Positions 40,087 through 63,082 of a DNA stretch of 64,000 nucleotides are shown here, in pieces. Where the stretch lies: assembly GCA_040388195.1 (NCBI GenBank), contig JAZKCF010000008.1, positions 1,831 to 65,830 of the forward strand, read 5' to 3'. Source of the DNA: Pseudomonadota bacterium. GTDB lineage: Bacteria; Pseudomonadota; Gammaproteobacteria; Burkholderiales; DATLHW01. The notes below the pieces were generated by a model. That model saw only the letters and a list, made by a program, of their open reading frames with translations. It searched no databases and had not been told where the DNA came from. The translations under genes and the position numbers were made by a program. Position 1 is the stretch's first letter. The number at the start of each line of letters is the position of its first letter.

Positions 40087-40201
40087 AATGCTCCCTCTTT
40101 GCGTACTTGCACTGTAAACAAAACCGCCGCTAATGAGCGAATACAACCGACCAATGGCCACTTTGTTAGAATGAGCGGCCATTTTTGCGGATTTTTCATT
40201 C

Positions 40202-41360: not shown

Positions 41361-41436
<76 letters not shown>

Positions 41437-41592
41437 TCTCTTTCCTCGATGGCGCTCTTGTCGCTGGCAATTTTGTTTCAAAACACAGTCAACGCAATTA
41501 GCCTATTGTTGGTTTAGTCGTGCAGTAAGACATAAAACCAACAGTATCCACCTCTCGCCTCCATGGCGGCCCCAACCATCCGGGAGCCGCTC

Positions 41593-42471
41593 ATGAAAAT
41601 CGCAATTGTCAGCACTAAAGGAGGCGTCGGCAAGACGACCCTCGCCGCCAACCTAGCCGGACTTCTCGCCGACATGGGACTACGCGTCCTCATGGTCGAT
41701 GCGGATATCCAGACTTCCCTCACAAAATATTACGGAATCGGAGACTTAGCGCCTCACGGGCTAACCCGCATGATCCGGCAAGGCTACATTTCTGCCGATT
41801 GCGTATCTCAAACGGTTTGGCCCAACCTCCACCTTGTCCGATCCGATCTCGATCTAGACACTGACGATGGCGATCTGGAAATGTGGTTGAAAGACCAGAT
41901 TGCCGGCTCGCTCAGACTCCGTCGCATCCTCCGCGCGCCGTATGTCTCTGAAAACTACGATGTCGTCGTGATGGATACCCAGGGCGCGCTCGGCGGCTCT
42001 GGGTCTCTCCAAAGCAATGCCGCGCTAGCCGCAGACGTCGTTTTATTCCCAATCACCCCTGATTCTCAAGCTGCAGCAGAGTTTTTTGATAACACGAAAA
42101 AATTGGTGCGGAACCTTCAGCAAGCCGAGGAATTCAATGTCTCGCTTGGCTTGCTGAAGGGACTGATTTACCGGCAAGAGCGGCTAACCAACGACCGCCT
42201 TTTTGCCGAAGAACTACGCACCAGCTACGTCCAGTTCTCCACCAAGCTGACCATGCTGGAAACCGTCATTCCCCACGCGAAAGCATATAAAGAAGCCTCC
42301 GCCCGGCAGATGCCGGTCCATCGGCATGAACCCGCGCCACGCGGCAGAACGACCAGCGCTTGGGACGTCATGCATCAATTGGCCTATGAACTTTTCCCGG
42401 ATCTGAAAGGCATTCAAGCACCACGTGACGCTACGTTAGTTTTACCTGTCGTTGTGGAGGGCGGCAAATGA
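41593..42471 (+). CDS. parA: ParA/Soj-type partition ATPase
   Basis: MKIAIVSTKGGVGKTT deviant Walker A. ATG at 41593. Confidence 0.85.
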   Translation: MKIAIVSTKGGVGKTTLAANLAGLLADMGLRVLMVDADIQTSLTKYYGIGDLAPHGLTRMIRQGYISADCVSQTVWPNLHLVRSDLDLDTDDGDLEMWLKDQIAGSLRLRRILRAPYVSENYDVVVMDTQGALGGSGSLQSNAALAADVVLFPITPDSQAAAEFFDNTKKLVRNLQQAEEFNVSLGLLKGLIYRQERLTNDRLFAEELRTSYVQFSTKLTMLETVIPHAKAYKEASARQMPVHRHEPAPRGRTTSAWDVMHQLAYELFPDLKGIQAPRDATLVLPVVVEGGK

Positions 42472-44030
42472 TGCAATCCAAACTTCCACCCTCTTCCCAG
42501 CCGGGGAAGCTTTCTCGCGAGGATATCAAAGCGAGACTCCGTCTAGCCGATCAACCCAAAGCATCGAAGGAAGCCGAGGACCCTGCTGGCGCGCAGTTTG
42601 TGTTGAATGTGATGCAGATTGGCGCCTATGACAAAAACCCTCGTCAATCTGTGTATGAGGACTTCGAATCACTTAAGGAAGGTATTCGTGAGCAGGGCTT
42701 CAATGGCGCTTTCCCTGTAACCCGTCGACCAGGCGATAACACCTACATGCTTGCGCAAGGTCACAATCAGCGACTTCGCGCAGTACAGGAGCTGTGGCAA
42801 GAAACCGCCGATCCGAAATTCCGCGATGTGCCGGTTGTGTACGTTCGATGGACTACGGAGAGCAACAATCTAGCCCGCCATCTCTCTGAAAACATGAATC
42901 GCAGCGATATGACCTTTTGGGATAAGGCCACTGGATTCCTGAATTTCAAGGAAACGCGCGAAGCCGAAATCGGCACGACGCTTACGCTCAGGAAATTAGA
43001 AGAAGAAACAAAGAAGGCCGGTATACAAACCTCGATTACCGCGTTGTCCTTCTTTCTATTTGCAGCCATCAAGCTAGCGGCACTTAGAACCGAGATACAC
43101 AACCAATTATCGCTGGAAGATATAAAAACGATCCAGCCAGCAGTTAATCGCTTCGCTGCAGTCTACAAAATCCTTGGTTTTGACGAGGGATGTTTTACCG
43201 ATGATGTTTTATCGATCGCCATAGATACGGTGAATCGAGAGTCCATTCATGAAAAGTGGTCAGCCAAAGGATTTATCACGGCGTGCGAACAGGCGCTTGG
43301 CAAAAAGACGCATACAAGCGCGGATCATGTCCGCGTGATGGTTGCCGTCAATGACCGATTTCCGTCCTTAAGCAAGGTTGAACTTCTCGAAGCGGCCCAA
43401 AATCCCAAGCCAGAGCCCTTGGTGAAAGCAGCTGCCCGACAACCCATTACAGAGGATCGGCCTACGCCAGCTACTCCACAACCTAGCGAAGCTATCAATG
43501 TAACAGCGCCCTCGCTCAGGCTTGGCGCGATTGGCCCGACAACAGAACCCACAACATCACAGGATATAAACGGAGCACAAAATCTGCTCGATCAAATATG
43601 GCGCCTCATCGAACAATTCGCCAAGGCCACAGAGATCACGGATTTGGTACGACAGACAGACTGCATGCCTGCCGGTTTCTACATGGAAGTACAAACAAAT
43701 GATGAACCGAATATCGATTTCGATCCCCGCGAATTCCGACATGCTGGCTGGTGGATGCTCGCCAGCATCTCCGGCCAACTAAATCGCAGTTTGAGTATCC
43801 GTTTGCCCGCAAACTCAACATGGCGGCGCGCCCATCAAAACGAAGATCCTGACCTAACGCTTGATTATCTGGTTCAAGAGCGACTAGGCATGTTCTGCTA
43901 TTTAACGACTGTGGCTCCATGGTTGATCGATCCAAGCCACGACATTGGCAGTATCTATTTTTCACTATTAAAAACTTTACGGGCATTGCGCGAAGCAGCG
44001 CCAGAACGATTTGCGGAGGTGTCGCAATGA
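42468..44030 (+). CDS. ParB-family protein, ICE (PFGI-1) class
   Basis: ParB/Srx-like N-terminal domain (YDKNPRQS...FPVTRRPG) with a long C-terminal extension, coupled to parA. Confidence 0.75.
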   Translation: MMQSKLPPSSQPGKLSREDIKARLRLADQPKASKEAEDPAGAQFVLNVMQIGAYDKNPRQSVYEDFESLKEGIREQGFNGAFPVTRRPGDNTYMLAQGHNQRLRAVQELWQETADPKFRDVPVVYVRWTTESNNLARHLSENMNRSDMTFWDKATGFLNFKETREAEIGTTLTLRKLEEETKKAGIQTSITALSFFLFAAIKLAALRTEIHNQLSLEDIKTIQPAVNRFAAVYKILGFDEGCFTDDVLSIAIDTVNRESIHEKWSAKGFITACEQALGKKTHTSADHVRVMVAVNDRFPSLSKVELLEAAQNPKPEPLVKAAARQPITEDRPTPATPQPSEAINVTAPSLRLGAIGPTTEPTTSQDINGAQNLLDQIWRLIEQFAKATEITDLVRQTDCMPAGFYMEVQTNDEPNIDFDPREFRHAGWWMLASISGQLNRSLSIRLPANSTWRRAHQNEDPDLTLDYLVQERLGMFCYLTTVAPWLIDPSHDIGSIYFSLLKTLRALREAAPERFAEVSQ

Positions 44031-44587
44031 AGCTCGCCATGTTCCCAGTAAATGACGTATCTGCCCGTTCCGTGCTTCTGCAAGAAATTTCACGGCGTAT
44101 CGAAAAAACCCAAATTAATGAATTGCAGACTAGCGGCCTTGATGTACCAACAATCGATCGGCTACGCGCTTTACCATATGGCACAGCCATATGTTTAGCG
44201 GACTTAGCGGCGGATTTGTTTTTTGTGGGAATCGATACCGGTCGATTGCATCTGCTGTTGGACGCTATGGAAGAGCGGAATCGAGCTGCGGCACTTCTCG
44301 AATACTACGTCGAGCACGGCGCCACGCTCACGATGATTCGCGCTTTGTTACGCCCTAGAAAGGACGTGCTCGCAGCCTACATCGAAAAGCTTTGCGGCGC
44401 CCTCCCTCGCGGCCGCCCGTCGCTTCCCGAAGTCACTATTCGCGATCGCATCCATGCAGTCTGGGCTGAGATTCAGAAATCCAAATTCGATCTCCCCGAA
44501 CGCGAGCGCCTCGTTGAGCTACATCGAGCGTTCTCTGTTTACAGCATGGCCACCCTCTACTCCGTCCTGAATGAGTTCAAGCGATGA
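44027..44587 (+). CDS. DUF2857-like ICE protein
   Basis: ATGA overlap with the parB stop, 186 aa. Position and size match DUF2857 in related islands; the assignment is from memory. Confidence 0.5.
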   Translation: MKLAMFPVNDVSARSVLLQEISRRIEKTQINELQTSGLDVPTIDRLRALPYGTAICLADLAADLFFVGIDTGRLHLLLDAMEERNRAAALLEYYVEHGATLTMIRALLRPRKDVLAAYIEKLCGALPRGRPSLPEVTIRDRIHAVWAEIQKSKFDLPERERLVELHRAFSVYSMATLYSVLNEFKR

Positions 44588-45048
44588 ATCAATACACAAC
44601 GACCCGCATCCCTTTCACTGCCACTCCCGCCAAGAACCCCAGCCATAGTCTGGGTCTTGATCCCGAACTGTTGCTGGAGTGGTTCCAAGCGCCTATTGCC
44701 TTTCATCGACCGTTGGTGGACTTAGCTGGCGGCAGCATTAGTGCCGCTGTCATGCTCACCCATGCCTTGCACGGGACGCGCGAGTTCTATTTTGCCGGCG
44801 AGTGCCATCCAAATTTGGCATTACAAGGTTTTATGCAAATGAGTCAGGTCGATTGGGAGCGTGAAACCGGACTTACTCGCTCGGCGCAAGAGACGGCACG
44901 ACGAATTCTCCGTAAACGCGGCTATCTCGAAGAAAAGCGCACCGGCATTCCAGCAAAGCTTTATTTCCGCGTGAATATTGAAAAACTATATGCGGATTTA
45001 AAAGCACAAGCGCGGAACCGCCTTAAAGAAGCTCATAGCAAACCATGA
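44584..45048 (+). CDS. island replication-like protein, one copy of a winged-helix-like module (STY4526-like?)
   Basis: 154 aa with the module PIAFHRPLVDLAGGSISAAVMLTHAL...RTGIPAKLYFRVNIEKL, shared with the next ORF. Confidence 0.45.
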   Translation: MNQYTTTRIPFTATPAKNPSHSLGLDPELLLEWFQAPIAFHRPLVDLAGGSISAAVMLTHALHGTREFYFAGECHPNLALQGFMQMSQVDWERETGLTRSAQETARRILRKRGYLEEKRTGIPAKLYFRVNIEKLYADLKAQARNRLKEAHSKP

Positions 45049-46469
45049 GGGACTTCCCAGTCCCTGGTGATCGAAAAGGTGTGTCGAATGCACTGACGAC
45101 GCTTTGGCCCCTTATCGGGCGGCCTGTCGCACTGCATCGTGGGCTGGTCGAACTGTGCGGCGGCGTCAAAACAGCCTTGATGTTGTCGCAAGCGATCTAC
45201 TGGACGCGCAAGGGAGTCGCCATTGCTGAAATGGATGGGTGGTTTCACAAGCGAATGGAAGACTGGCAATTAGAAATTGGCTTACGACGCCGCACACAAG
45301 AGCGCGCACGCAAGCACCTGCTTGCACTGGGCGTACTGGAGCAACGACTGCACGGACTACCAGCGCAGCTTGAGTTTCGAGTGAATCTTGAACAACTCGC
45401 AAACCTGCTTACAAAAGGTTCGGAAGCCGCTCAACCAATGCGCGAAATGATGTCGCTTTTCGGTGCGCCGCTTGCTTTTCATACCAGTCTTGCAAAGCTC
45501 ACCGATTCAGTTGCTGCCGGATTATTGCTTTCGAACCTACTTCATTTCACCCGACGACGCGTAATGGATGGCGTCGGCAATTTTGTTGAAATGCCATGGA
45601 TTGCGCTGGCGGCAACACGATGGATGGCTACCACCGGTTTATCACGACGAGAATTTGATGGTGCTAGAAACACCCTGCAGGCATTGGCGCTGATCACCGA
45701 ACGCCTACGCGGAATACCGCCAATTCTGGAAATGCGGGTGGAAATTATGGCGCTAGGGCGGCAATTAAGTCAGCAAATCCCCCAAAAAATGGGAAAACCC
45801 GTCAATTTGTACGTTTTGGACAACCAAGATTGCGAACAGCCCGCAATCACAGTTACCAACGACGCACATTCTAGTTTGTCCAAAATGTACAAATCAGATT
45901 GGCCGGAACACACAAAACAGGTTGGCCCAATCGCACAAAATGGTTTGGCCGAAAGCGCCAAAACATTATTAGATCTGACTACAGCTTTTAATACCTCTCT
46001 CTTACAACCACCTATTCAGGTAGAAACATCTACGCCCGCGACTACGCCGTGTGGTGGTGCGAACGATTCTTCTCTCATTTACCCCCACGTCCTCACATCG
46101 ATTGAGAAACAAGCTGTCAGTAACTTGCTAAGGAATGTTCAGCAAAAACACGCGCAGCTAATTCTCGACGAACTGGAGGGCAGATTACATCACGTTGGCG
46201 CGACAGGAATTCCCAATCGAGTGGGGTACGTGCGGCGATTACGCGACCTACATCTCGTTGGCGGCTTTGTACCGGAAACCGCATTGTCAGTTCAAGCGAC
46301 ACGTCTGCGGAAAACGGAAGAACGCGCCCGCCGCGTTATCGAAGCAGAAGACCGCGAAAAAGCAGCGGCTATCGCAGCAACGCCCGAAGCGAAGAAACGA
46401 CGCGAACAGGCTTTGGCCCAGACAAAAGCATTACTTGGCATTTCAGGAGCGGGGAGGAGCACCGCATGA
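45045..46469 (+). CDS. island replication-like protein, two copies of the same module (STY4528-like?)
   Basis: 474 aa containing two further copies of the module plus a basic C-terminal tail. Confidence 0.45.
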   Translation: MRDFPVPGDRKGVSNALTTLWPLIGRPVALHRGLVELCGGVKTALMLSQAIYWTRKGVAIAEMDGWFHKRMEDWQLEIGLRRRTQERARKHLLALGVLEQRLHGLPAQLEFRVNLEQLANLLTKGSEAAQPMREMMSLFGAPLAFHTSLAKLTDSVAAGLLLSNLLHFTRRRVMDGVGNFVEMPWIALAATRWMATTGLSRREFDGARNTLQALALITERLRGIPPILEMRVEIMALGRQLSQQIPQKMGKPVNLYVLDNQDCEQPAITVTNDAHSSLSKMYKSDWPEHTKQVGPIAQNGLAESAKTLLDLTTAFNTSLLQPPIQVETSTPATTPCGGANDSSLIYPHVLTSIEKQAVSNLLRNVQQKHAQLILDELEGRLHHVGATGIPNRVGYVRRLRDLHLVGGFVPETALSVQATRLRKTEERARRVIEAEDREKAAAIAATPEAKKRREQALAQTKALLGISGAGRSTA

Positions 46470-46488
46470 AAGCTAGCTACATGAAATG

Positions 46489-46553
46489 TGTTTACGCCGT
46501 AAACAAGAATTCGAGCAACCAATTCAAAGCAAATGTTGTTTACGCCGTAAACA
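46489..46553. promoter_or_regulatory. two copies of the 17-bp palindrome TGTTTACGCCGTAAACA (parS-like)
   Basis: Exact copies at 46489-46505 and 46537-46553, each preceded by AAATG. Confidence 0.6.
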
Positions 46554-46596
46554 GCCAACCAGTAATGATTCACCCATTCACCCACGCTGATGTTGC

Positions 46597-47733
46597 TTGC
46601 AGAGAGCCTGCCGCAACGACAATCGGAGACTTAATGTGAACCCGCACAAAATCGCAACGACCGCGCCCACAGAGCCGATGGAATTGATCGCTCAGCCAAT
46701 AGAAATTGCATCAACTTTGACGAGGTCTAACCAGCGCTCGCCGTTTTTTTCAGATGGCTATGACATCAACACCGAACGCGAAGCTCTCAAGGATTTATCT
46801 GAAAACCCAGATCCCGCTGATCCACGCTGGCCTCGATTCGTGGAACTACAAGAACGAGAGGAAGAACTGACGCAAATGCAGCGGCGACTTGAAGCACGCG
46901 CCGCCGCTGAACCAGTTGTTCCAGACCCTGAGGCACGTGGCATCCGCGAAGTGGGCCGCTTAGTCTCCGAAGAACAAGACCGGATGACATTGCACACGAA
47001 GGAAGCTTACCGGCTATTCATCGGCAAGGTGAATACCGGCGGCAAGAGCTTCGCTATCGCTGGAGGCAAACGCGTGGCTTCTGCCTTGCGATCGATTTAC
47101 TACCTGTCAAGCAATGACAACCCGTATGCCGACTGGGTCCTGGTGTCCTTCCAGCAAGGGCTGGACGAACTGCGCCAACTCATCGCACAAGAAACTGCCG
47201 CAAAGATGAAGCTGTTGAACGAACTGCGCCAACGCGGTTTGAGCTATTCCGTATTGCGCGCCGATCCGCCGAAGGATGTCGAGATTGGATTCAAGAGTCC
47301 ATACGGTTACGGCGTCGCCGAAATGCTGGTCGCGTTCGATTACTACGTGCGGCTCGCGAAAACTCTCGTTCGCAAAGATTTGTTGTCTGATCAAGATGGA
47401 TACGACGCGGTTCGGAAGGTCGCCCGTGTTGCACGGGCACTATTTTGGCAACCGGTTTCTTTCGAGCGGTATTTGATGCGGAAAGAACTGCAGCCACTGT
47501 CACGCGCCGATTGGCTGCCTGGCGCAAATGAATTAGCGGCGCAACGAGTACGGGCAGTTGTCGCGATATTCGGAGAGGTCCCAAGAGCAGTGTTTTCTGG
47601 CGCAGAAGCGCCACGACACAGTCGCCGGCGAGTGAATCTATCCGCAGAGGAACTGCGGCTATTAGAGACCATCGCATTAAATCCTGTATCGGTCGATACG
47701 GCGGACGATACCGCGATCAATCAACTGGTATGA
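46597..47733 (+). CDS. ICE protein, PFL_4669/TIGR03761-like
   Basis: 378 aa in the conserved position after the replication-like genes. The start is uncertain (TTG 46597, GTG 46636 with GGAGA upstream, ATG 46678). Confidence 0.5.
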   Translation: MQRACRNDNRRLNVNPHKIATTAPTEPMELIAQPIEIASTLTRSNQRSPFFSDGYDINTEREALKDLSENPDPADPRWPRFVELQEREEELTQMQRRLEARAAAEPVVPDPEARGIREVGRLVSEEQDRMTLHTKEAYRLFIGKVNTGGKSFAIAGGKRVASALRSIYYLSSNDNPYADWVLVSFQQGLDELRQLIAQETAAKMKLLNELRQRGLSYSVLRADPPKDVEIGFKSPYGYGVAEMLVAFDYYVRLAKTLVRKDLLSDQDGYDAVRKVARVARALFWQPVSFERYLMRKELQPLSRADWLPGANELAAQRVRAVVAIFGEVPRAVFSGAEAPRHSRRRVNLSAEELRLLETIALNPVSVDTADDTAINQLV

Positions 47734-47746
47734 AGTGGATTGTGTA

Positions 47747-48235
47747 ATGAACTCGATTGAGAGCGTAACGCTTTGTCAACAACGTGTTGACACAAAGGGT
47801 TTCAAGGGTAAGGGGGGCGTGGAAACCTGGGTCAGAAATGTGGTGAGCCGATTGAATGCTGTTCGTGAGGATATGGCGGCGTTGGCATCCGCGAGCAACC
47901 AGGTGGCGCCGCGTTACTTCCACCTGCAACTACATGCGCGAAGCGCTACCGGTAGTCTCTCGCTACGCTGGCGATTTACCACAGGAAAACATGCGCTATG
48001 GAAAGACTTGGCGCCGCACTTAACCGGCGTGCCCCAACGAATCGCTGATTGGTATCGCGCCGCGAATGAGGAAGCGGAACTGCTGAATGCGATGGAGCAA
48101 GCTTTACGCGCGGAACTCAGGATGGCGGAGCGACTGGCTATCCGAATGGGAGTTGGGCAGCAATGGCAACGGGAAACCGGATTGCGGTCATCGATAGTTT
48201 CGGTAGGCCAGCAAGAACCGAACCGAAAGCGTTGA
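47747..48235 (+). CDS. DUF3158-like ICE protein
   Basis: About 162 aa immediately upstream of ssb, as in related islands. Confidence 0.45.
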   Translation: MNSIESVTLCQQRVDTKGFKGKGGVETWVRNVVSRLNAVREDMAALASASNQVAPRYFHLQLHARSATGSLSLRWRFTTGKHALWKDLAPHLTGVPQRIADWYRAANEEAELLNAMEQALRAELRMAERLAIRMGVGQQWQRETGLRSSIVSVGQQEPNRKR

Positions 48236-48322
48236 CGAACATTTTGAAATTTAAGTGCGGACAATTATTTGAAGACGTTTCACGGGCAACGGGGTAATTC
48301 AACTTACTGATTGGAGAACACC

Positions 48323-48727
48323 ATGAGCAATGAATTTCGTGGCAATGGCAATCTTGCCGAGAATCCCGCTATCAAAACCGTCACCGTGGATGGCGAGGAG
48401 CGAAAGTTGGCCGAGATGCGTATCTTCTTCGACCGGCTTCGGCAGGATGGTGATGGCGGCCTCGCCGACAAGGGCGGCTTTTGGCTTGATGTGACGGCAT
48501 GGGGCAATGATCTCGCCGAGCGTTGCGGCAAGCTACTTCGCAAAGGTGCGCGGCTCCATGTGGTGGGTGAACTGCAACAACAGAAATGGACAAGTAAAGA
48601 ATCGGGTGAGGAAAAAAACGCGATGCAGCTTAATGCGAGCGAGGTGTACCTCGGCCTCTCACGCGTTGAGTCGGTGACTTACAAAGAACGTAAAACCGCA
48701 GCGGAGCGGGACTCCGAAGCGGCCTAA
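48323..48727 (+). CDS. ssb: single-stranded DNA-binding protein (short, no acidic tail)
   Basis: OB-fold pattern NEFRGNGNLAENP...FWLDVTAWGNDLAERC...GARLHVVGELQQQKW. GGAGAA RBS before the ATG at 48323. Confidence 0.85.
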   Translation: MSNEFRGNGNLAENPAIKTVTVDGEERKLAEMRIFFDRLRQDGDGGLADKGGFWLDVTAWGNDLAERCGKLLRKGARLHVVGELQQQKWTSKESGEEKNAMQLNASEVYLGLSRVESVTYKERKTAAERDSEAA

Positions 48728-48747
48728 GACGTTGAGAGGGATCGCCT

Positions 48748-49002
48748 ATGACAACGCAAAGGACGACACCTTCCATCGCGCATGCCGAATTACGAATGCT
48801 GCAAGGTATCGCCGCAACTATCGTGATGGATGCGGCTAACAACATTGGTGTTTCGCGATGCCGATTTGGTCGCTTCGAACTAACCGCGCAGCGCTTCGGA
48901 AATACTGAGGTACAGGACAAGGTGACGATGGAACTCATGGTCACCTATGCCGGCGAGATTATCGAATATGACAGAGGACACATTCCTCGCCGTTCAATTT
49001 AA
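48748..49002 (+). CDS. hypothetical protein
   Basis: 84-aa ORF, same strand and close spacing after ssb. Confidence 0.4.
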   Translation: MTTQRTTPSIAHAELRMLQGIAATIVMDAANNIGVSRCRFGRFELTAQRFGNTEVQDKVTMELMVTYAGEIIEYDRGHIPRRSI

Positions 49003-49028
49003 ACACATTTGAAAGGAGACGGATTGCT

Positions 49029-49385
49029 ATGAACAGTTTATTTGGCACGCCACAAGCTTTCGTTATATCGCTCTTCATTTTTATTGCCACTGTCTCGATT
49101 GGTTATCGCGTTTCCGCATTATTAAAAGACGGCGACGTGATTGTAAATAAAACACCTATCGGCAATGTCGAAAAGGTCGAATTTTTAAAACCGTTGACTT
49201 TCTTTGGTTCTGATACGCAAACCGTTATTACAACTGAAAAAGGATCGTTCTTAATCCAAGGCGCTGCGTCTCCCAAAAACGATATGCCACTTGAAAAGCA
49301 GATTATGAAAAGCGGCAATACCCGGATTTGCGATTCTTCTATCTGCTGGTGGATGGTTGAGGATGGTGTACCGCAATCAAAATGA
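49029..49385 (+). CDS. hypothetical membrane-anchored protein
   Basis: 118 aa with one N-terminal TM segment (FVISLFIFIATVSIGY). AGGAGA RBS upstream. Confidence 0.45.
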   Translation: MNSLFGTPQAFVISLFIFIATVSIGYRVSALLKDGDVIVNKTPIGNVEKVEFLKPLTFFGSDTQTVITTEKGSFLIQGAASPKNDMPLEKQIMKSGNTRICDSSICWWMVEDGVPQSK

Positions 49386-49540
49386 TCATTGGACGAGATG
49401 TCGGTGTCGACGTTACCGAGATTGCGCGAGAGTTAATGGCAACTCTGTAAACAATACGCGTGTGAAACAATCAGTCGCCGATCACGTTTAATAATTGCCA
49501 CTTGCGGACCGCGATATCGTGCTGGCGCTATGCCTGCTTC

Positions 49541-49572
49541 AGACTCTTATGTATAGCTATATATAAGAGTCT
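49541..49572. repeat. 32-bp near-perfect palindrome
   Basis: AGACTCTTATGTATAG|CTATATATAAGAGTCT, with 15 of 16 arm positions complementary. Confidence 0.8.
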
Positions 49573-49592
49573 ACGGCGGTCATGGCTGTGAT

Positions 49593-49656
49593 ACATAACG
49601 TAGAGTTGAGGAGACTGCGCGGCTTTTTGCGCAACTCCCTCGAACGCCCGTTTAGC
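49593..49656 (-). repeat. attC-like site A (64 bp)
   Basis: Minus strand reads GCTAAAC-GGGC-GTTCGAGGGAGTTGCGC...GCGCAGTCTCCTCAAC-TCTAC-GTTATGT. The TAA stop of the upstream ORF lies inside the first box. Confidence 0.55.
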
Positions 49657-50086
49657 TGGCACGAACTGGGAAGGACTCGGTAACAAGGCTAAGTTCTGCA
49701 AGGGTTTTCTGCAACTGCGTTTGATCTAAGGTTAATTCGAACACGAGACGATTGCCGGTGCCTGGTATGTCTATTGCCGTGCCCTTAAGAAGTATTTCCC
49801 CACGGCCATTTCCATGAAGCAGCAGCGACAATTGCTCCTCCATTGTGGAAAACTTTGCTATACCGTTCAACGAGCGATACAGCTCGATAAGCTGGTTATG
49901 AAAACTTACTAATTCCTCTGTAAGGAACGCGGCGTCATACTTGCCCGAGAACGCGCCAGAGACAACCAACACACGGACACGAAGCCAGTTGTCGTCGAAA
50001 TATTCTCCGACGGGGTTACGCTTATAACCAACCACTTGCACTTCAATGCGCTCGCGACTGTTGCTGCCGATGGAAAATGATGACAT
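49652..50086 (-). CDS. cassette ORF 6, hypothetical (144 aa)
   Basis: ATG at 50086 (MSSFSIGS...), 8 nt after the GTTAGCC box. The track start at 50137 reads through the attC-like site. Confidence 0.55.
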   Translation of the reverse strand: MSSFSIGSNSRERIEVQVVGYKRNPVGEYFDDNWLRVRVLVVSGAFSGKYDAAFLTEELVSFHNQLIELYRSLNGIAKFSTMEEQLSLLLHGNGRGEILLKGTAIDIPGTGNRLVFELTLDQTQLQKTLAELSLVTESFPVRAS

Positions 50087-50094
50087 GGATTGAC

Positions 50095-50184
50095 GGCTAA
50101 CGGCCCAATTGAAGGACGCCCGCCCCGATGCTTGCATTAAGAAGTAACATTATTCGCTCACCGCTTTCGAATATAGTGTTAGAG
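50095..50184 (-). repeat. attC-like site B (family 2, 90 bp)
   Basis: Minus strand reads CTCTAAC-ACTAT-ATTCGAAAG...CCTTCAATT-GGGCC-GTTAGCC. It shares the blocks CGCCCCGATGCTT and AACATTATTCGC with sites C and E. Confidence 0.6.
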
Positions 50185-50571
50185 CGCATTTTCATACACA
50201 GCCGGCTCATTGCGGCAAATTACTGAAACGCAGTCATTTCCACCGGCAACCAAACACTCCTTGGCTTCGGGATTCATTGCAGAGATAAGACTTCCTTCTC
50301 GGTTGGCTTCTTGTGATAACCAACCTCCCCCTGTGACCTCAAACAACCCACCATTAGGTGTTGAGCATTCCGGCCAATATTCTAGGAGGTCACGTTCATC
50401 GAGAACGCGAAAACCGATTGTGTCGATAAATTCAACGACCAATGCCGTGGCATTCTCAGCGCCTTGCACACGAATAGATAGCCTTCCAAGCCCGTATTCG
50501 AGCCCATTCACTTCTGAGCCACGAGGGAAGGAAACCTTTGAGTTCAGTGGCCGAGCCGAAACTTTAGCCAT
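50179..50571 (-). CDS. cassette ORF 5, hypothetical (130 aa)
   Basis: In-frame ATG at 50571 (MAKVSARPL...) just after the GTTACGG box. The track start at 50619 is a GTG inside the attC-like site. Confidence 0.5.
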   Translation of the reverse strand: MAKVSARPLNSKVSFPRGSEVNGLEYGLGRLSIRVQGAENATALVVEFIDTIGFRVLDERDLLEYWPECSTPNGGLFEVTGGGWLSQEANREGSLISAMNPEAKECLVAGGNDCVSVICRNEPAVYENAL

Positions 50572-50579
50572 GGCATGCG

Positions 50580-50671
50580 CCGTAACGGATAAATTGAAAG
50601 GTTCGTCCGCCTCGAACACCTTTCAAAAAAAGTGGGTTCATCGGCCGGTGCCTTTCGAACGCCCGGTCAGC
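50580..50671 (-). repeat. attC-like site C (family 2 relative, degenerate first box)
   Basis: Minus strand reads GCTGACC-GGGCG-TTCGAAAGG...CCTTTCAATTTATCC-GTTACGG. Its 5' arm is shared with site A and its 3' arm with sites B and E. Confidence 0.45.
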
Positions 50672-50681
50672 AGTATTTGGG

Positions 50682-51101
50682 CTACTTCTTACCATGGGGA
50701 AAATTGAGTTGCTCAAACATTAGACGATTATATTCGGAGACATACTCTTGAAGTGCATTCAGACGTTGGGAAGCTTCTTCCCCGAGAAGTGTTTCACAAG
50801 AAGGGCCGAATTTCTTAACGCCCTGCTTCCAAGGCGGCTCAATCTTTGAAACGTCACCTGCGGGAACAGAATATCCGAGGATCATATCATTGCACTGAAC
50901 TACCGAAAGATAACGTTTATCCCCAGACTTTAGCGCATCTGCGACCGCTTCCTTTGGTGGTACCTGGAGTAGTATTTTTTCGTCCAGGGTAGGTTGCTGC
51001 GACCATCCAGACGTAGCAAAAAGCACGGCAAGAATCGTAACTTTGGAACGAATCATAAGATTGCTAACGCATCGACGTAAGCGATTAGCCAGCGCGTTCA
51101 C
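50682..51101 (-). CDS. cassette 4, second ORF: hypothetical N-terminally anchored/secreted protein
   Basis: 139 aa with a hydrophobic N-terminus (VTILAVLFATSGW). It overlaps the upstream ORF by 4 nt. Confidence 0.5.
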   Translation of the reverse strand: MNALANRLRRCVSNLMIRSKVTILAVLFATSGWSQQPTLDEKILLQVPPKEAVADALKSGDKRYLSVVQCNDMILGYSVPAGDVSKIEPPWKQGVKKFGPSCETLLGEEASQRLNALQEYVSEYNRLMFEQLNFPHGKK

Positions 51102-51580
51102 TCGCGAACTCCTTTGCGAAACTGCTCGTAGGTGTACCAGGCCGCATCAGGAGCTGCGTGGATCTCAATGGGAAACCGGGGCTGACCAGCGAGTGCCTTG
51201 TTGAGAGCAGTAAAGAAGTCGTCTTCCGACCGCGCATAGAAGGTCCATTCGCGCAGGTTCTCGCCTGTTGACACCAGAACAAGCACGCTGGCTCCTGACT
51301 TTTCGACGAGTGGTGCAAGTAGATCTTCCATGCGATCCATTGCTTCGCGCTCCTTGGGCGCTGGCATGCCCGAATCGGACTTGTACTTCCACACGATAAT
51401 AACGCGATCAGGGAAGGTCGACCGCTGAAACCCCTGAAGGAACGACTTGGCGTACCGAAAGACTATTGTGCGTTCAGTTCCCTGTTGCTTGGAGACAGCG
51501 GTTGCCCACTCTGTGATTTCCGCTGACGAGACGGGAAGAGAAAGCAAGGCGACAAGAACGAAGGCAAGAATACGCTTCAT
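51098..51580 (-). CDS. cassette 4, first ORF: DUF695-like protein with signal peptide
   Basis: 160 aa with the signal peptide MKRILAFVLVALLSLPVSSA and the pattern IVWKYKSDSGMP...REAMDRMEDLL recalled from DUF695. Confidence 0.55.
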   Translation of the reverse strand: MKRILAFVLVALLSLPVSSAEITEWATAVSKQQGTERTIVFRYAKSFLQGFQRSTFPDRVIIVWKYKSDSGMPAPKEREAMDRMEDLLAPLVEKSGASVLVLVSTGENLREWTFYARSEDDFFTALNKALAGQPRFPIEIHAAPDAAWYTYEQFRKGVRE

Positions 51581-51593
51581 ATAACGGCTAGCC

Positions 51594-51673
51594 GATTAAC
51601 GTAACAGGCGCACGACGGAAAATCGAGCAGAGAAAGAACGATTATCGGCGCGTCCTGGTTCACGAGGTTAGGC
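51594..51673 (-). repeat. attC-like site D (family 1, 80 bp)
   Basis: Minus strand reads GCCTAAC...GTGAACCAGGACGCGCC...CGTCGTGCGCCTGTTAC-GTTAATC. The arms are near-identical to site F. Confidence 0.65.
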
Positions 51674-52090
51674 TTTAGCATAGAACTTGACGATCTCTTG
51701 CTCCCGCTCGTTGGCCGAGATGTGTAGTACGAGAGTTTGCGTCAACTCGACATTTGGATGGAATGCGTTATTCTTGCAGAACCAGAACACTTCAGCCATC
51801 GTCTCGTCTTCGTGCCATGTCGTCATGACGAACTTGTTCTCCGGAATCTCTTTGAAATTGAACTCCTCGATATTGGCCATGTCCACCGAGTCATCCCATG
51901 AACTGCAGTTCGTTCCCCATGCCATAGTGTAAAGACATCCGGACTGCACGAGCCAGACGCTAACCGACGCTTGCCAGTCCGGGGACACCTCGGCCTCCGC
52001 TACGATGACTGCGCGAAATGGAGCGAGGGTAGAGATGTCTGGCAATACAGCTCCCATTGGCGCCAGATGCAGATAGGTGGGTGGTGACAT
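51668..52090 (-). CDS. cassette ORF 3, hypothetical (140 aa)
   Basis: ATG at 52090 (MSPPTYLHL...), 3 nt after the GTTAGGC box. The TAA stop lies inside the GCCTAAC box of site D. The track start (TTG 52207) reads through site E. Confidence 0.55.
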   Translation of the reverse strand: MSPPTYLHLAPMGAVLPDISTLAPFRAVIVAEAEVSPDWQASVSVWLVQSGCLYTMAWGTNCSSWDDSVDMANIEEFNFKEIPENKFVMTTWHEDETMAEVFWFCKNNAFHPNVELTQTLVLHISANEREQEIVKFYAKA

Positions 52091-52093
52091 GAA

Positions 52094-52181
52094 GCCTAAC
52101 GAAATTGAGAGGGGCGCGCCCCGATGCTTCCTTGAAAAACCAACATTATTCGCGCGTCCTTTCTCGAATGGGGTGTTAGAT
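52094..52181 (-). repeat. attC-like site E (family 2, 88 bp)
   Basis: Minus strand reads ATCTAAC-ACCCC-ATTCGAGAAAGG...CCCTCTCAAT-TTC-GTTAGGC. Both boxes match RYYYAAC and GTTRRRY exactly. Confidence 0.7.
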
Positions 52182-52238
52182 TGGAGAGCAACCATACGAT
52201 GTTGCAATCACATTTTTTCGTTACTTCATCTGTATTTG

Positions 52239-53204
52239 TCAAGTGTTGTTGGATGAGGTGTCTTCGCACTCATAAGGGCCAAACATTTCAATACCAGACG
52301 CGGCAGTTACTGGTAGGCTTACTTGTAGCTCATCTACATCCACCAATCGTCTGCGCAGCGAAAAGCTATCACGAACTTCGTGCATTTCATAAAACCGAAC
52401 TTCCTTTTCGCGCCCCTCTATAGCCTTGATCACTGAATGTATGATTGATGGCGGACAGCGAAGACCGAAAACAACCTCAGTTAGAAGTAACGGAGAGTCT
52501 TGTAGACCTTGCTTGCCGATCAAGCGCCATTCGGACTCATATTTCCAGCCACTCGCCTTTCGAAGCAATACATCTCGGTCCAAATCCACCATAGCCTTTT
52601 CGGCGTTATGCAGGAACGCATCACAAAGTATTGAAGTTCTAATTGCGCGACTACCTCCATAGATAACTTTTTGCAACTGAGGGACAGGATTACGCTTTGT
52701 GCTGTATCCGATACAAATTCCTTGGTGCTGATCACCATAGTGGCTCCAAAGAAGAGGATTTGAATACGATGTGGAGAAACAGCAAACACCTCTTTCATAC
52801 CAACGGCGCAACTCACACTCAATAGCTTGCATTAGTAACCAGGACTCGTTTTCTTCCAATGCTCCCTCGTAGTCTGGATTCGTCGCGTTGTAGGCTATGT
52901 TGGCCAGCTCATTTTCTGTCTCACGTCGGGCTCTCTTCGTTGCGTGCTCACTGGCAGTATTTCCTCTTATACGAGCATGGCTCAAATGGGAAAGCACTTC
53001 GGATGAAACTCTCTTGCTAAAGAAAAAAGCAAGAAGCTTTCTGAGATCATCATTATTGGAGTCACAACTGAGTGTTGGGCTACAGTCTAGGGGATCATTA
53101 AACGCGCCGGGATGAGAAAAGAAAAGAGTGTCATAGCATAGTGAATCCAGCGTTGTCGTACTAAACGCGCGATAACGGTAGAAAGTCTTGGGTTGGTTTG
53201 TCAT
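52239..53204 (-). CDS. cassette ORF 2, DUF2971-like protein
   Basis: 321 aa. The N-terminal FYRYRAFS...TLDSLCYDTLFFSHPGAFNDPLDC is typical of DUF2971. Confidence 0.6.
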   Translation of the reverse strand: MTNQPKTFYRYRAFSTTTLDSLCYDTLFFSHPGAFNDPLDCSPTLSCDSNNDDLRKLLAFFFSKRVSSEVLSHLSHARIRGNTASEHATKRARRETENELANIAYNATNPDYEGALEENESWLLMQAIECELRRWYERGVCCFSTSYSNPLLWSHYGDQHQGICIGYSTKRNPVPQLQKVIYGGSRAIRTSILCDAFLHNAEKAMVDLDRDVLLRKASGWKYESEWRLIGKQGLQDSPLLLTEVVFGLRCPPSIIHSVIKAIEGREKEVRFYEMHEVRDSFSLRRRLVDVDELQVSLPVTAASGIEMFGPYECEDTSSNNT

Positions 53205-53235
53205 GAAACTTGGTTTTGTAATCGTTGAGTCTAAC

Positions 53236-53318
53236 GATTAACGTAACAGGCGCACGACGAAATGCTAAGCAGAGAAGGAGCGATTATTCGTGCGTCCTGG
53301 TTCACGACTGAGTTAGAG
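53236..53318 (-). repeat. attC-like site F (family 1, 83 bp)
   Basis: The first 24 nt (plus strand GATTAACGTAACAGGCGCACGACG) are identical to site D. The distal arm TGCGTCCTGGTTCACGA is also shared, and the centre is variable. Confidence 0.65.
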
Positions 53319-53585
53319 TTGCGTTTGGATTGCATAGACAACAAACCTCTCACCATTCAAATCGATAGTTTTGCACCAGACATTCTTTCGGTTGGGGACT
53401 TCAGCAAACTCACCACCGTGTGCCTTTTGAGACAACTCTTTTTTCAGCGGCGGCGAGAGACCAGGAAGGGCGTTCTCTGGTAAGTCACCAGACCAACTTG
53501 AAACGAACCCTTTAAAGTTACTGTAACTACCTTGCGCAACATAGGTCGAGTCTCTGAAAGAGGCAATGTATGTATAGAGTGGCAT
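53313..53585 (-). CDS. cassette ORF 1, hypothetical (90 aa)
   Basis: The ATG at 53585 lies 5 nt after a perfect GTTAGAT core (53591-53597). The stop is next to site F. Confidence 0.5.
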   Translation of the reverse strand: MPLYTYIASFRDSTYVAQGSYSNFKGFVSSWSGDLPENALPGLSPPLKKELSQKAHGGEFAEVPNRKNVWCKTIDLNGERFVVYAIQTQL

Positions 53586-54253
53586 TGAAAATCTAACAGT
53601 GTTTATACGGACCCGTCGATCTGTATATCAATTATTAATAATGACAGCCATTATGCGTCGTACATTATTGATCTACAACATGGGATCAGTTTTTGCATCT
53701 CTATAAAAACCTCAATATTGGGGGCGCGACGAAGCGTAAAACTTCAATTAGGGTTCTCTGCTTTTTCATAAGAAGTGACAATCTTATGGGATGAATCGGT
53801 TAATCCCCTACACTTGCGTGATCAACACTCCATCGTTTGACGGGAAGCACGGACCGGGTTCGGCACGAACGGCCGCATTAGGAACTGTACTTCTGCGGTC
53901 GCTTTGATCGGGTATTGCCTGATCGTTGAAAAGCGATGCGTTCGGTTCCGCTGCATTGCTACCATCGAGTCGTGTGAGTACGATATACCACTGTGGCACG
54001 AAGTTGCTGATCGACAAAGGCAACATGCCAGAAGATATTCCCATGGATGAAGTAACGCTCTCCAAGATAATCGAATGTCGCAAAGCAATTATGCATGTCA
54101 GCACGCTTGTCACAATCGATCCGTTACTAGATATAAAATGGTTGAGAAAACCTCATAATCTGCCTTGACAACGAATTCGATCAGTGTACGATTTAAAGTG
54201 TTCTTCGTTAGCTGAGTCAGCTCGCCTCACATGCGCAAAGTGTGGCCTTTAAA

Positions 54254-54301
54254 GCCGTGAGACCCCTGGTAGGAACGGCATAACCGCAAGGTTTGGGGTA
54301 A
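54254..54301 (+). other. type I conserved pseudoknot-forming element, copy 1
   Basis: GCCGTGAGACCCCtggtaggAACGGCatAACCgcaaGGTTtGGGGTAA. Pairings are CCGT/ACGG and ACCCC/GGGGT, with an inserted GCAA-tetraloop hairpin. Confidence 0.6.
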
Positions 54302-54634
54302 TGAGTCATTCACCATCAGACGAGAAATCATTTCTCGTTACTAGCACGATGCATTTGATTTCTCTTTGAGAAAGTATCGTGCCGATCATTTGCACGATTA
54401 CCAATCGACTACAGCATTGAAGAAAGTCGTACGTCCACGTAATGGCGATCACGATATTTTTTCCGGCTTGAAAACGATGTGACGTTCCTCGTTTATAGCC
54501 GCGTTACTCACCTTGACCGGTGATGCATTGTCGCAGTCGATTCATCGTTTCACACCCCTGTCCGGGAGGCTTTTGTCTCCCCTTGGGGCGACATGACCTC
54601 CCTTTTTTTGTTTGTCATTAGAAAGGAGATGTTC

Positions 54635-55087
54635 ATGTCCGACCTTACCCACAATGAAGCAAATACCAACGCCACCGACGGTTCCGTATTCTTTGACCTC
54701 CATGTCAATGGTATCGGCTATCTCAATCGCGTCCGCGAAGTGAAGGTGAAGAAAGGCCAATTCCTGGCCTGCTCCATCAGCGCCATTCGTGGAGATACAT
54801 CCGATGTCGATTACACGAAGTTCGATGTCCGTGTGACCGGGACTGAAGCGAAAGAAATCGTCAAGCAGTTGAAGTCGACCGTCGATGCTAAAAAAGCGGT
54901 GATCGTCGGCTTCAAGCTGGGTGACATTTATCCAGAGAAATTCGTGTACGAAAACGGTGATCGCAAAGGTGAAGTCGGCGTTGTCATTAAAGGCCGGCTT
55001 CTCAAGGTGCGATTCGCCAAGGTAGACGGTATGAACATCGATCTGCCGAGGGAAGTCCCTGCCCAAGCGACCGGAACCAACGGTTGA
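54635..55087 (+). CDS. DUF3577-like (STY4534-like) ICE ssDNA-binding/replication-associated protein
   Basis: About 150 aa with FFDLHVNGIGYLNRVREVKVKKGQFLACSISAIRG. AAGGAG RBS before the ATG at 54635. Confidence 0.65.
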   Translation: MSDLTHNEANTNATDGSVFFDLHVNGIGYLNRVREVKVKKGQFLACSISAIRGDTSDVDYTKFDVRVTGTEAKEIVKQLKSTVDAKKAVIVGFKLGDIYPEKFVYENGDRKGEVGVVIKGRLLKVRFAKVDGMNIDLPREVPAQATGTNG

Positions 55088-55102
55088 ACTAACTGGGATA
55101 TC

Positions 55103-55142
55103 GACGGAACACTCGCGCCCTTTCGGCGGCGGGTGTTCCGTC
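55103..55142 (+). other. long GC-rich hairpin after the DUF3577-like gene
   Basis: GACGGAACAC...GTGTTCCGTC is a 10-bp stem with an inner CGCC/GGCG pairing. No T-run follows. Confidence 0.5.
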
Positions 55143-55173
55143 ACTTACTGGATAGCAATCGAAAGGAGTTTTC

Positions 55174-55656
55174 ATGAATTGCATAAACAACCAATTACGG
55201 CCACTGCCGACACGAAAATCCATCACGGTCGAAATCGATGCGGCAAAAGCACCGGCCTTTAATGAACTGCTCAACGAATTTTTCAACGGAACGCGTTATC
55301 AAGCAATCGTTGAAAAAAAGCGAGCGGATCAGGAAACACAAATTGCATCTCTGCAGCATCTTTATAACTTGACTCAAAAGCATTCAGGAACTGGGCAAGC
55401 GCGTGTGATCGCTCATTTCTTGGCTTGCCTGTACAACGGTTATCGCTTTCAATTTGATCTGACCGATTTTCGATCGCTTGATACCGATATCTTCCAGCAT
55501 TGCCTCAATGTGTTGTGGCTTGATAATCAACCGGCGCAAGAAGTGCATTGTTACTTCCAAAACGGCGGCGAATTATGGGAGCGCATGATCGAGGAATATG
55601 GACTGAAAGACCGGAGCAAGATAAATGCGTTGGCAAGTAGTAGCCGAAACATTTAG
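55174..55656 (+). CDS. hypothetical ICE protein
   Basis: 160 aa with an AAGGAG RBS 7 nt upstream. No motif recognised. Confidence 0.5.
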   Translation: MNCINNQLRPLPTRKSITVEIDAAKAPAFNELLNEFFNGTRYQAIVEKKRADQETQIASLQHLYNLTQKHSGTGQARVIAHFLACLYNGYRFQFDLTDFRSLDTDIFQHCLNVLWLDNQPAQEVHCYFQNGGELWERMIEEYGLKDRSKINALASSSRNI

Positions 55657-55782
55657 CTTCATGTCTCAGGCAGATGAGACAGTTATGTTTTCGCATCATC
55701 GCCAGTTCCATCGCTTTAACGCTGAGCCTTACCTTGAACCAAATTCCCGTTTTGCACGTTTCGGACAAAACGTGCGCCATAA

Positions 55783-55827
55783 ACCGTGAGACCCCTCGAA
55801 AGAACGGCGGGCGCAAGCCTGGGGTAA
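55783..55827 (+). other. type I conserved pseudoknot-forming element, copy 2
   Basis: ACCGTGAGACCCCtcgaaagAACGGCgGGGCgcaaGCCTGGGGTAA, preceded by the hairpin GCACGTTT-cggac-AAACGTGC. Confidence 0.6.
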
Positions 55828-56120
55828 TCCGTAATTCCTCGCGAATGGCGTCTGGGACTCCCTGACACCTGCTCGGATCAACTTGGCGGTTATCCTGGTG
55901 CCGTCACAGTATCTAGCGCTTCTCGCGGGCGTCGTCTTCGTCGGCGTGAATCGCTGCCGAATTTCTTGAAGTAACTACTGCCGTCGTGATTTTGTCGATC
56001 GAGATGAAATCCCGGCGGCGCCATTTTTTAATTTCCTGCGGGATATGCAATTTCCCCGCAGGGAAGTTGCGTCTTTCGCGGGCCTTTTTGTTCCATCACC
56101 CACGCAAAGGATACGCAATC

Positions 56121-56684: not shown

Positions 56685-57006
56685 GTGATTTTCAATTAAC
56701 AATCATGAGTGGTATTTGCCCGCATTCGCGGGCATACCGATGGGGCGTCTCATCGGCATGCCCGTGAGCTCCGGGTGTATTCAGCCTGGGTAAGCGACCG
56801 CCCGAGAAAGGTCGCGCCCTTGGCGCTTGCGGCGCGCAGTTCATACAAGGAACGCGCTAGGAATCCATATATTTGTTGGTGAGCCTCTTTATACAAAGGG
56901 GCCGCTAAAGCGTGTCAAAACTATCCAAGCACGTTTTAGCAGCCGTTTTGTCGTTGTTCAACCGTGACTGCCGGCAGCAGTCCGATTAACGTCCGTTAGA
57001 CGTTAT

Positions 57007-57052
57007 GCCGTGAGACCCCTTGAAAGAACGGCTGGCGATTAGCCTGGGGTAA
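57007..57052 (+). other. type I conserved pseudoknot-forming element, copy 3
   Basis: GCCGTGAGACCCCttgaaagAACGGCtGGCgattaGCCTGGGGTAA, preceded by the hairpin AACGTC-cgtta-GACGTT. Confidence 0.6.
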
Positions 57053-57136
57053 CCGTACTTACACATCACCAACCTGGTGGGAAGCCGATTCCCGCCGGGG
57101 AGAGGGTTTTCCGCTTTTCTTAAGGAGATCCTCGCC

Positions 57137-63078: not shown

Positions 63079-63082
63079 CGTT

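Follow-up and report, generated by a model that had tools for sequence, protein, structure and literature searches.

Gene content of the locus

The 64,000-nucleotide stretch analysed here (the window) belongs to contig JAZKCF010000008.1 of a Burkholderiales metagenome-assembled genome (MAG), and its minus strand carries, between positions 49593 and 53597, seven open reading frames (ORFs) in six units, all co-oriented. This block, a candidate array of integron gene cassettes without an integrase of its own, is the subject of the present analysis (Table 1). An earlier examination of the letters only, called here the sequence-only reading, had proposed six consecutive minus-strand units, each ending in an imperfect palindrome; the six units are indeed present, and a hairpin with the geometry of an attC site, the recombination site of a cassette, follows every ORF or ORF pair.

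Read on the minus strand, each palindrome opens with a box named R'' and closes with a box named R'. Five units contain one ORF each and one contains two, all in the same orientation as their sites. The ATG starts lie 3-24 nt past R' in every unit, inside the range of 3-40 nt that had been proposed. The stop codons, which had been placed inside or beside the first box throughout, lie within R'' in cassettes 1, 3, 5 and 6, but 13 nt upstream of it in cassette 4 and 57 nt upstream in cassette 2. A scan for promoters and terminators found promoter-like and terminator-like sites only at chance level.

Table 1 Features of the cassette array and of its surroundings (window coordinates; R2 is the attC covariance model described in the text, and its E-values are rough).
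Feature	Position	Strand	Remarks
Upstream junction GTTAGAT	53591..53597	-	read from the sequence; crossover between G53597 and T53596
Cassette 1	53235..53596	-	ORF 53313-53585, 90 aa, no Pfam match, followed by attC A
attC A	53229..53318	-	R2 30.6 bits, E 3.3e-5, top match in the window
Cassette 2	52100..53234	-	ORF 52239-53204, 321 aa, DUF2971 (Pfam 1.8e-9); PADLOC candidate defence family PDC-S31 (2.8e-43)
attC B	52094..52181	-	ATCTAAC ... GTTAGGC; R2 27.4 bits, E 1.9e-4
Cassette 3	51593..52099	-	ORF 51668-52090, 140 aa, DUF7684 (Pfam 4.3e-59)
attC C	51586..51673	-	R2 13.6 bits, E 0.39, rank 5 in the window; also seen as a repeat and in the alignment
Cassette 4	50586..51592	-	ORFs 51098-51580 (160 aa, DUF695) and 50682-51101 (139 aa), 4-nt overlap
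attC D	50579..50672	-	R2 13.3 bits, E 0.46, rank 6 in the window
Cassette 5	50101..50585	-	ORF 50179-50571, 130 aa, no family match
attC E	50095..50184	-	CTCTAAC ... GTTAGCC; R2 23.3 bits, E 1.9e-3
Cassette 6	49599..50100	-	ORF 49652-50086, 144 aa, WapI-like immunity protein family (Pfam PF24716, 5.3e-26)
attC F	49593..49656	-	GCTAAAC ... GTTATGT; R2 22.5 bits, E 2.9e-3; last site of the array
Array-associated DNA, about 565 nt	53598..54162		between the first cassette and the resumed homology to a related island
tRNA-Thr, island boundary marker	41361..41436	+	ARAGORN
parA, island start	41563		ParA by Pfam
PFL_4669-family protein (AcaB-like)	46597..47733	+	TIGR03761 131.6 bits, above the cutoff of 110.7; Pfam AcaB
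ssb	48311..48727	+	Pfam SSB
Two small ORFs after ssb	48748-49002, 49029-49385	+	also present in a related island
DUF3577 / STY4534-family replication protein	54593..55087	+	Pfam 3.8e-44; NCBIfam NF040584 148 bits, below the cutoff of 160

The cargo consists of small proteins, and the DUF2971-like and DUF695-like members that had been suspected among them were both recovered by Pfam, together with DUF7684, a WapI-like family and proteins without a family. It includes one candidate phage-defence protein (cassette 2) and one WapI-like immunity protein (cassette 6), and no recognised resistance protein was found among the cassettes by Pfam or PADLOC. With 90% identity as the threshold, none of the cassette proteins has a companion in a collection of 15 billion proteins. 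By exact-protein look-ups the array is known from this MAG contig and one Logan contig only, the latter being 100% identical over its whole length; comparison of the array with plasmids by megablast or blastn gave no match. As a separate observation, a 68%-identical homologue of the DUF2971 protein of cassette 2 directly adjoins an operon of the anti-phage CBASS type in two other loci (L101 and L102).

Anatomy of the six attC sites

The six palindromes follow a common plan, which on the minus strand reads R'' (7 nt, ending in AAC), a spacer of about 5 nt, L'' (3 bp, one extra base and the rest of the stem), a loop, L', a spacer of about 6 nt and R' (7 nt, starting with GTT). The geometry of these hairpins is that of attC sites taken from plasmid class 1 and class 3 integrons (GES, aac(6')-Ib, cmlA5). 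Four sites (A, B, E and F) have the paired core formed by R'' with its AAC and R' with its GTT; in D the AAC is GAC, and C is without the GTT of R'. In the top-scoring example, attC A, R'' is CTCTAAC and holds the TAA stop, followed by the spacer TCAGT, L'' CGT(G)AAC... with the extra base in brackets, L' GTTACG, the spacer TTAATC and R' GTTAGAC (53235-53229), and the hairpin of the bottom strand is closed by the R box. The R''-L'' and L'-R' spacers measure 5 and 6 nt in A and E, 5 and 3 in B, 2 and 6 in C, 4 and 5 in F, and 4 or 5 and 6 in D.

The alignment of the sites separated three families, A/C (85% identical), B/E (78% identical) and D/F, and it also placed the lesions that individual members carry. 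AttC B is 3 nt short in the L'-R' spacer when compared with intact members of its family. In attC C the R''-L'' spacer is 3 nt shorter and R' is degenerate, GGCTAGC, with GGC replacing the GTT crossover triplet. In attC D, R'' is TGCTGAC, with GAC for AAC; L'' GTT(C)GAAAGG and a long loop come next, and L' CCTTTCAAT and R' GTTACGG complete the site. Substitutions in the L'' arm of attC E break the inner stem, and in the register of its family attC F has R'' AGCTAAA, with AAA replacing AAC.

Some of the boxes given in the sequence-only reading need revision. Its second box GTTAATC, assigned twice, is the L'-R' spacer and not R', which is GTTAGAC in A and the degenerate GGCTAGC at the end of C, and the family register gives R'' TGCTGAC for D and AGCTAAA for F. 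It had also argued that the arm next to the stop codon is the longer one and would leave unpaired G and T bases on the plus (bottom) strand. One extra base after the first three L'' pairs was found in six of six sites; in B, D, E and F it reads C on the top strand and hence the canonical G on the bottom one, whereas A and C have G on the top and C on the bottom strand.

Covariance-model search, pairing and folding

To search for attC sites we used two covariance models. The seed model R1 was made of nine hand-delimited, trimmed attC sites and served only to bootstrap the second one. The integrase (IntI) set comprised the integrase of the metagenomic integron L006 aligned with IntI1, IntI3 and one cyanobacterial IntI, and 80 IntI loci were fetched from genome contigs. 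With R1, 82 loci yielded 128 sites, nearly all of them placed, by strand and side, as cassette arrays should be. R2 was rebuilt from these 128 sites, which lie beside IntI genes in 82 other loci, so that no window sequence was in its training. One of the loci, in a Candidatus Eisenbacteria MAG (L090, 16245-19757, plus strand), showed its attC matches downstream of intI on the same strand, an arrangement inverted in comparison with the other 79 loci.

R2 was run on the full 64 kb on both strands (128 kb) with the filters off, as a proxy for the attc_4 model of IntegronFinder. The six highest-scoring matches coincide with the six junctions and are on the minus strand, and the next best match anywhere scores 8.6 bits; four of the sites are significant (30.6-22.5 bits, E 3e-5 to 3e-3) and two are weak (C and D, E ~0.4). 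These two are ranks 5 and 6 of the 128 kb searched, and they fall on the right strand in the only two remaining inter-ORF gaps. Neither the unrelated control loci (41.6 kb, threshold E<=1) nor the fragments of related islands, L095 and L093, contained an R2 match.

Of the pairs that the model sets out in the six sites, 90% are standard pairs, compared to 29-43% with slid partners, in an alignment that was itself fitted to the model. Six of the nine L-helix pairs are changed on both sides among the six sites. In the R helix 79.5% of the cells are paired and the central four pairs are nearly invariant. Judged by folding energy, the single strands were mostly no more stable than shuffled sequences, and only A stood out (z = -2.7).

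Homologues of the cassettes and sites in other integrons

The seven cassette proteins were compared with 97 loci by tblastn, and homologues were found for DUF7684 of cassette 3 alone. This protein has 266 relatives, mainly on short metagenome contigs. A 68%-identical homologue is the fifth cassette of L006, a true integron whose integrase scores 466 bits with TIGR02249 against a cutoff of 265. The L006 cassette begins G/TTAGGC-ctc-ATG (the slash marks the crossover) and ends with TAA inside GCCTAAC; its anatomy is identical to that of cassette 3, which starts G/TTAGGC-ttc-ATG and has its TAA stop inside R'' GCCTAAC. Throughout L006, each cassette has an R'' that can pair with the bases at its own start, and such complementarity is the signature of circular cassette intermediates. 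Perfect complementarity between R'' and the first six bases of the own cassette was found in the window for cassette 3; for the other cassettes the comparison is uninformative because TTAG is common to all junctions. DUF7684 cassettes occur also outside complete integrons. In a Burkholderiaceae MAG one is part of a two-cassette integrase-less cluster adjoining pmbA (L002, 9440-10430), and in L003 (5183-5685) a single one with an attC of 25.8 bits stands after sucD, as in a single attC site lacking integrase (SALIN).

The sites themselves have relatives too. An attC from the array of a Thiobacillus integron (L068) has 87-89% identity to attC F, the loop of which, TGCGCAAAAAGCCGCGCAG, recurs in attC sites of four further integrons (L091, from Comamonas, L064, L047 and L076). 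A scan of metagenomes with the B-type pattern retrieved two contigs. The first, L097, has three attC sites of the B/E family (38-49 bits) bounding classical cassettes (GGCTAAC ... G/TTAGCC), and in the second, L096, a B/E-family attC is interrupted by an insertion sequence of the IS110 family. On this second contig (~420-1510 and 1590-1681) the IS110-family transposase gene abuts the B/E-type attC, the R'' side of which is replaced; the arrangement resembles the IS1111-attC group, which targets attC sites. Scans of viral contigs with two attC family patterns found none. By sequence, structure and homology, then, the six junctions prove to be attC sites.

An array without integrase

No similarity to an integron integrase was found in the window. 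A tblastn search with IntI sequences gave a best E of 1.2 over the 64 kb, none of the 565 six-frame ORFs of the window did better than E = 0.41 with a hidden Markov model (HMM) of four IntIs, and no Phage_integrase domain was present among the ORFs scanned between 39.6 and 64 kb. The sequence-only reading had seen no tyrosine recombinase within several kb, which these searches bear out for the whole window.

An attC-site cluster that has no integron integrase (CALIN) is defined by two or more attC sites spaced by less than 4 kb, none of them having an integron integrase within 4 kb (IntegronFinder, 2016). The six sites of the window are 0.4-1.1 kb apart and the window has no IntI similarity, neither an intI gene nor a remnant of one. 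A complete integron would have intI next to the array and divergent from it, together with attI and the Pc promoter. A sedentary chromosomal integron does not describe the block either, since it has three attC families and no intI; the likeness to such integrons proposed before was not upheld at the level of the sites, which are a mixture of three families instead of one homogeneous repeat. We are therefore confident that the block 49593-53597 of the minus strand is a CALIN of six cassettes, placed in a cargo slot between the ssb and DUF3577/STY4534 genes of a PFGI-1-type island at tRNA-Thr.

Several observations weigh against this reading. Sites C and D are individually non-significant with R2, and all E-values are rough owing to a shortened calibration. 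R1 matched none of the six sites even at E<=10, which marks it as a narrow model, and the single-strand folding energy beats that of shuffled sequences at one site only. Direct cassette homology exists for cassette 3 only, and around the homologues of cassette 2, in five other loci, there is no attC. There is no close relative of any cassette, so that no excision or reshuffling variant could be observed. The low R2 scores of the window sites may reflect divergence from the training set rather than loss of function, and the conjugation genes, the relaxase and the island integrase lie beyond the window, which holds only the tRNA-Thr-proximal 22 kb of the island.

The mostly unremarkable fold z-scores and the blank R1 search, together with a scan of 48-56 kb against Rfam that gave no match, would also suit ordinary intergenic hairpins, terminators or repetitive extragenic palindromic (REP)-like repeats, whose attC likeness would be coincidental. 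Such hairpins would not explain why the top six R2 matches of 128 kb fall exactly in the six inter-ORF gaps and on the correct strand, why the boundaries of cassette 3 are those of a true integron cassette, or why B/E and F have homologues among the attC sites of real cassette arrays; terminator-like sites, moreover, are at chance level. This explanation is strongly disfavoured and we consider it extremely improbable.

The host island and its cargo slot

Counted from tRNA-Thr the gene order of the island is parA, a PFGI-1-type parB, DUF2857, the PFL_4669-family gene, ssb, the array, the STY4534-family gene, then DUF7673, DUF3275 and RadC, with a DUF6094 methyltransferase, an SNF2 helicase and a Kiwa defence pair further along. 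The PFL_4669 family (TIGR03761) we take to be a signature protein of integrative conjugative elements (ICEs) of the PFGI-1 type. Tested with the signature proteins of PFGI-1/ICEclc/SPI-7-type elements, the island matches TIGR03761 above its cutoff, with ParB (TIGR03764, 123.6 bits, under a cutoff of 143.75) and the STY4534 family just below theirs. Judged by these gene families, the backbone is the predicted tRNA-proximal part of a PFGI-1/ICEclc/SPI-7-type island. The placement of the array between ssb and a DUF3577-like gene of a conjugative-type island, as first read from the sequence, is confirmed by the Pfam, TIGRFAM and NCBIfam matches of the backbone, and we infer from it that the cassette pool would be horizontally mobile.

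Related islands carry other genes at this place. The island L095, which is partly deleted, matches the window at tRNA-Thr/parA (41378-41805), at ssb and at 54163-55937 (91% identity), and between ssb and DUF3577 it has a hydrolase and a 278-aa gene where the window has the array. The P0122 locus has SSB, ORFs of 83 aa and 121 aa, then other genes over about 8 kb (SLATT and HEPN_AbiU2 among them) and DUF3577. As the cargo differs between these islands, the array occupies a cargo hotspot.

Some further features of the island were recorded. L095 stands at the same tRNA-Thr site with large internal deletions, the 5' end of parA being followed by an AcaB fragment and the 3' end of ssb; it looks like a copy of the ICE in decay. 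The island also carries a complete pair of Kiwa anti-phage genes at 62203-63592 on the minus strand, with KwaA at 63083-63592 (PADLOC 1.1e-71) and KwaB at 62203-63078 (4.7e-104). An intergenic repeat of 55-60 nt (AAGCCGTGAGACCCC...GAACGGC...TGGGGTAA) is located at 54252-54311, 55781-55837 and 57005-57060, upstream of three consecutive backbone genes (DUF3577, DUF3275 and RadC). L093 and L094, both fragments of related islands, have it as well, and its role could be that of a regulatory hairpin or of a single-strand promoter in an ICE leading region. The chromosomal flank encodes, shortly before tRNA-Thr (39634-40275, minus strand), a type IV minor pilin that has a ComP_DUS domain, that of a DNA-uptake-sequence receptor.

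The edges of the array

Both outer junctions of the array read G/TT, compatible with the G/WT consensus of attG, the secondary sites of integron recombination. The hotspot motif CRGM (+6 to +9) is absent after the last R', where TATC is found instead. At the upstream edge R2 detected no attC upstream of the 53591-53597 junction, and the sequence there, TATAAAC-ACT-GTTAGAT, loosely resembles an attI simple site, so this may be an attI-like or a secondary-site junction. The DNA between the first cassette and position 54162 has no IntI similarity, no Pfam match for its ORFs and no recognisable content; homology to L095 resumes at ~54163 with a conserved TTGACA promoter-like box (~54165). Directly downstream of the last attC, at 49527-49586, stands an AT-rich palindrome of 30+30 nt (AGACTCTTATGTATAG/CTATATATAAGAGTCT) with no T-run after it.

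The array would have entered the ICE either by insertion through IntI at a secondary (attG) site or as the remnant of an integron platform that has lost intI. An attI-like upstream junction would fit the second route, a decapitated integron, but the window has no intI remnant. An empty site for the array was sought and none was found.

The window is 64 kb of a 143-kb contig, and a complete integron with its integrase beyond the window, or a chimeric MAG assembly of integron and ICE DNA, was weighed as an explanation. The Logan contig (L001) that shares the array is 100% identical to window positions 43850-53652 and stops 55 nt beyond the first cassette junction on the upstream side; that end may be an assembly branch point, as a chimera would leave, or strain heterogeneity at the upstream edge. 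As a rule, no more than a few hundred bp separate intI from the first cassette, whereas the 10 kb upstream of the array are ICE backbone. L001 also spans the downstream end of the array and continues 100% identical through ssb to DUF2857, so that this junction is backed by a second assembly. We regard an unseen integrase or a chimera as very unlikely, and retain an integrase-less array within the island.

State of the sites and proposed history

The window sites score 13-31 bits with R2, compared to 33-62 bits for intact control attC sites, which suggests that they may be partly eroded in the absence of an integrase. The lesions in C (GTT of R' lost), D (AAC changed to GAC), B (3-nt spacer loss) and E (broken inner stem), together with the low scores, give the sites the appearance of eroding ones, and on this ground cassettes 3, 4 and perhaps 5 are probably locked together.

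From these sequence features a history can be proposed. Originally, IntI would have made and moved each cassette by recombining the folded bottom (plus) strand of the attC, crossing over at G/TT. The cassettes would have been drawn from different pools, as the mixture of three attC families implies. Having no recombinase of its own, the array would now travel only passively with the island, and single cassettes could be moved only with IntI supplied in trans.

The array could also be a fully working cassette pool, with functional attC sites serviced in trans by the IntI of the host or of recipients and the ICE acting as a shuttle, possibly as single-stranded DNA (ssDNA) during conjugation. Conjugative entry of ssDNA promotes attC folding and induces IntI via the SOS response, and the array lies among leading-region-type genes (ssb, RadC, the DUF6094 methyltransferase and the SNF2 helicase). 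Four sites have significant attC scores and canonical geometry, and the decay invoked for the low scores of the other two is itself an interpretation. A working pool is, however, hard to reconcile with a site C deprived of the GTT crossover triplet and a site D with a mutated R'', with scores under those of the intact controls at all six sites, with the lack of IntI evidence in this genome, and with the fact that no cassette occurs elsewhere at >=90% identity; we judge it unlikely. A more specific proposal, a 'cassette ferry', is quite doubtful: attC sites in the leading-region-like part of a PFGI-1-type ICE would enter the recipient as ssDNA and the SOS-induced IntI of the recipient would harvest single cassettes. 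If true, conjugation would be linked directly to integron capture, and non-resistance cassettes (defence, immunity) would spread among integron-owning lineages.

A partly eroded, passively carried CALIN, the reading retained here, implies that environmental cassettes of the chromosomal-integron type, and not just clinical resistance ones, can become cargo of conjugative islands, and that such cassettes can cross host boundaries without their integrase. As intact relatives are at hand for two of the three attC families, the locus is a convenient natural case for the rate of attC erosion after integrase loss.

Comparison with known systems

In a survey of 21,105 genomes 2961 CALINs were counted, the commonest size being two cassettes, and about 95% of them were not beside an intI pseudogene (10.1101/2022.09.11.507474). 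Like these, the window array has two or more attC sites spaced by less than 4 kb, no intI nearby, co-oriented promoterless cassettes and no adjoining intI pseudogene; unlike a typical CALIN it has six cassettes, three attC families, an ICE cargo slot as its location and lesions in several sites. Sedentary chromosomal integrons such as the Vibrio superintegron share with it a small, mostly uncharacterised cargo that includes immunity-like and defence-like genes, but they have a resident intI and highly homogeneous, species-specific attC repeats, whereas the window array has no intI and heterogeneous sites. Chromosomal integrons of Betaproteobacteria and of related environmental bacteria have identical boundaries of the DUF7684 cassette (L006) and share the D/F attC family with the array (L068, L091, L064, L047, L076); in contrast to the window array, they have an adjacent IntI and higher-scoring attC sites (33-62 bits for the controls). 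With attG/SALIN insertions (Loot et al., 10.1101/2022.09.11.507474) the array shares a position outside an integron platform and G/TT at both outer junctions, and differs from them by six cassettes instead of one and by the CRGM motif, absent after the last R'.

One CALIN in another ICE, and integrons of the SXT family, were reported in 2017 (PMC5587801), and ICEPmiW2 carries antibiotic-resistance cassettes beside a class 1 integron (PMC13358208). As in these cases, the attC array of the window is accessory cargo of an integrative conjugative element; unlike in ICEPmiW2, the element is of the PFGI-1 type, the cassettes include no recognised resistance ones and the attC sites are related to those of betaproteobacterial-type chromosomal integrons. 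Because CALINs are common and one in an ICE was already noted in 2017 (PMC5587801), the current picture is unchanged. What is particular here is the ICE family, a cargo free of recognised resistance genes, the mixture of three attC families and their visible decay.

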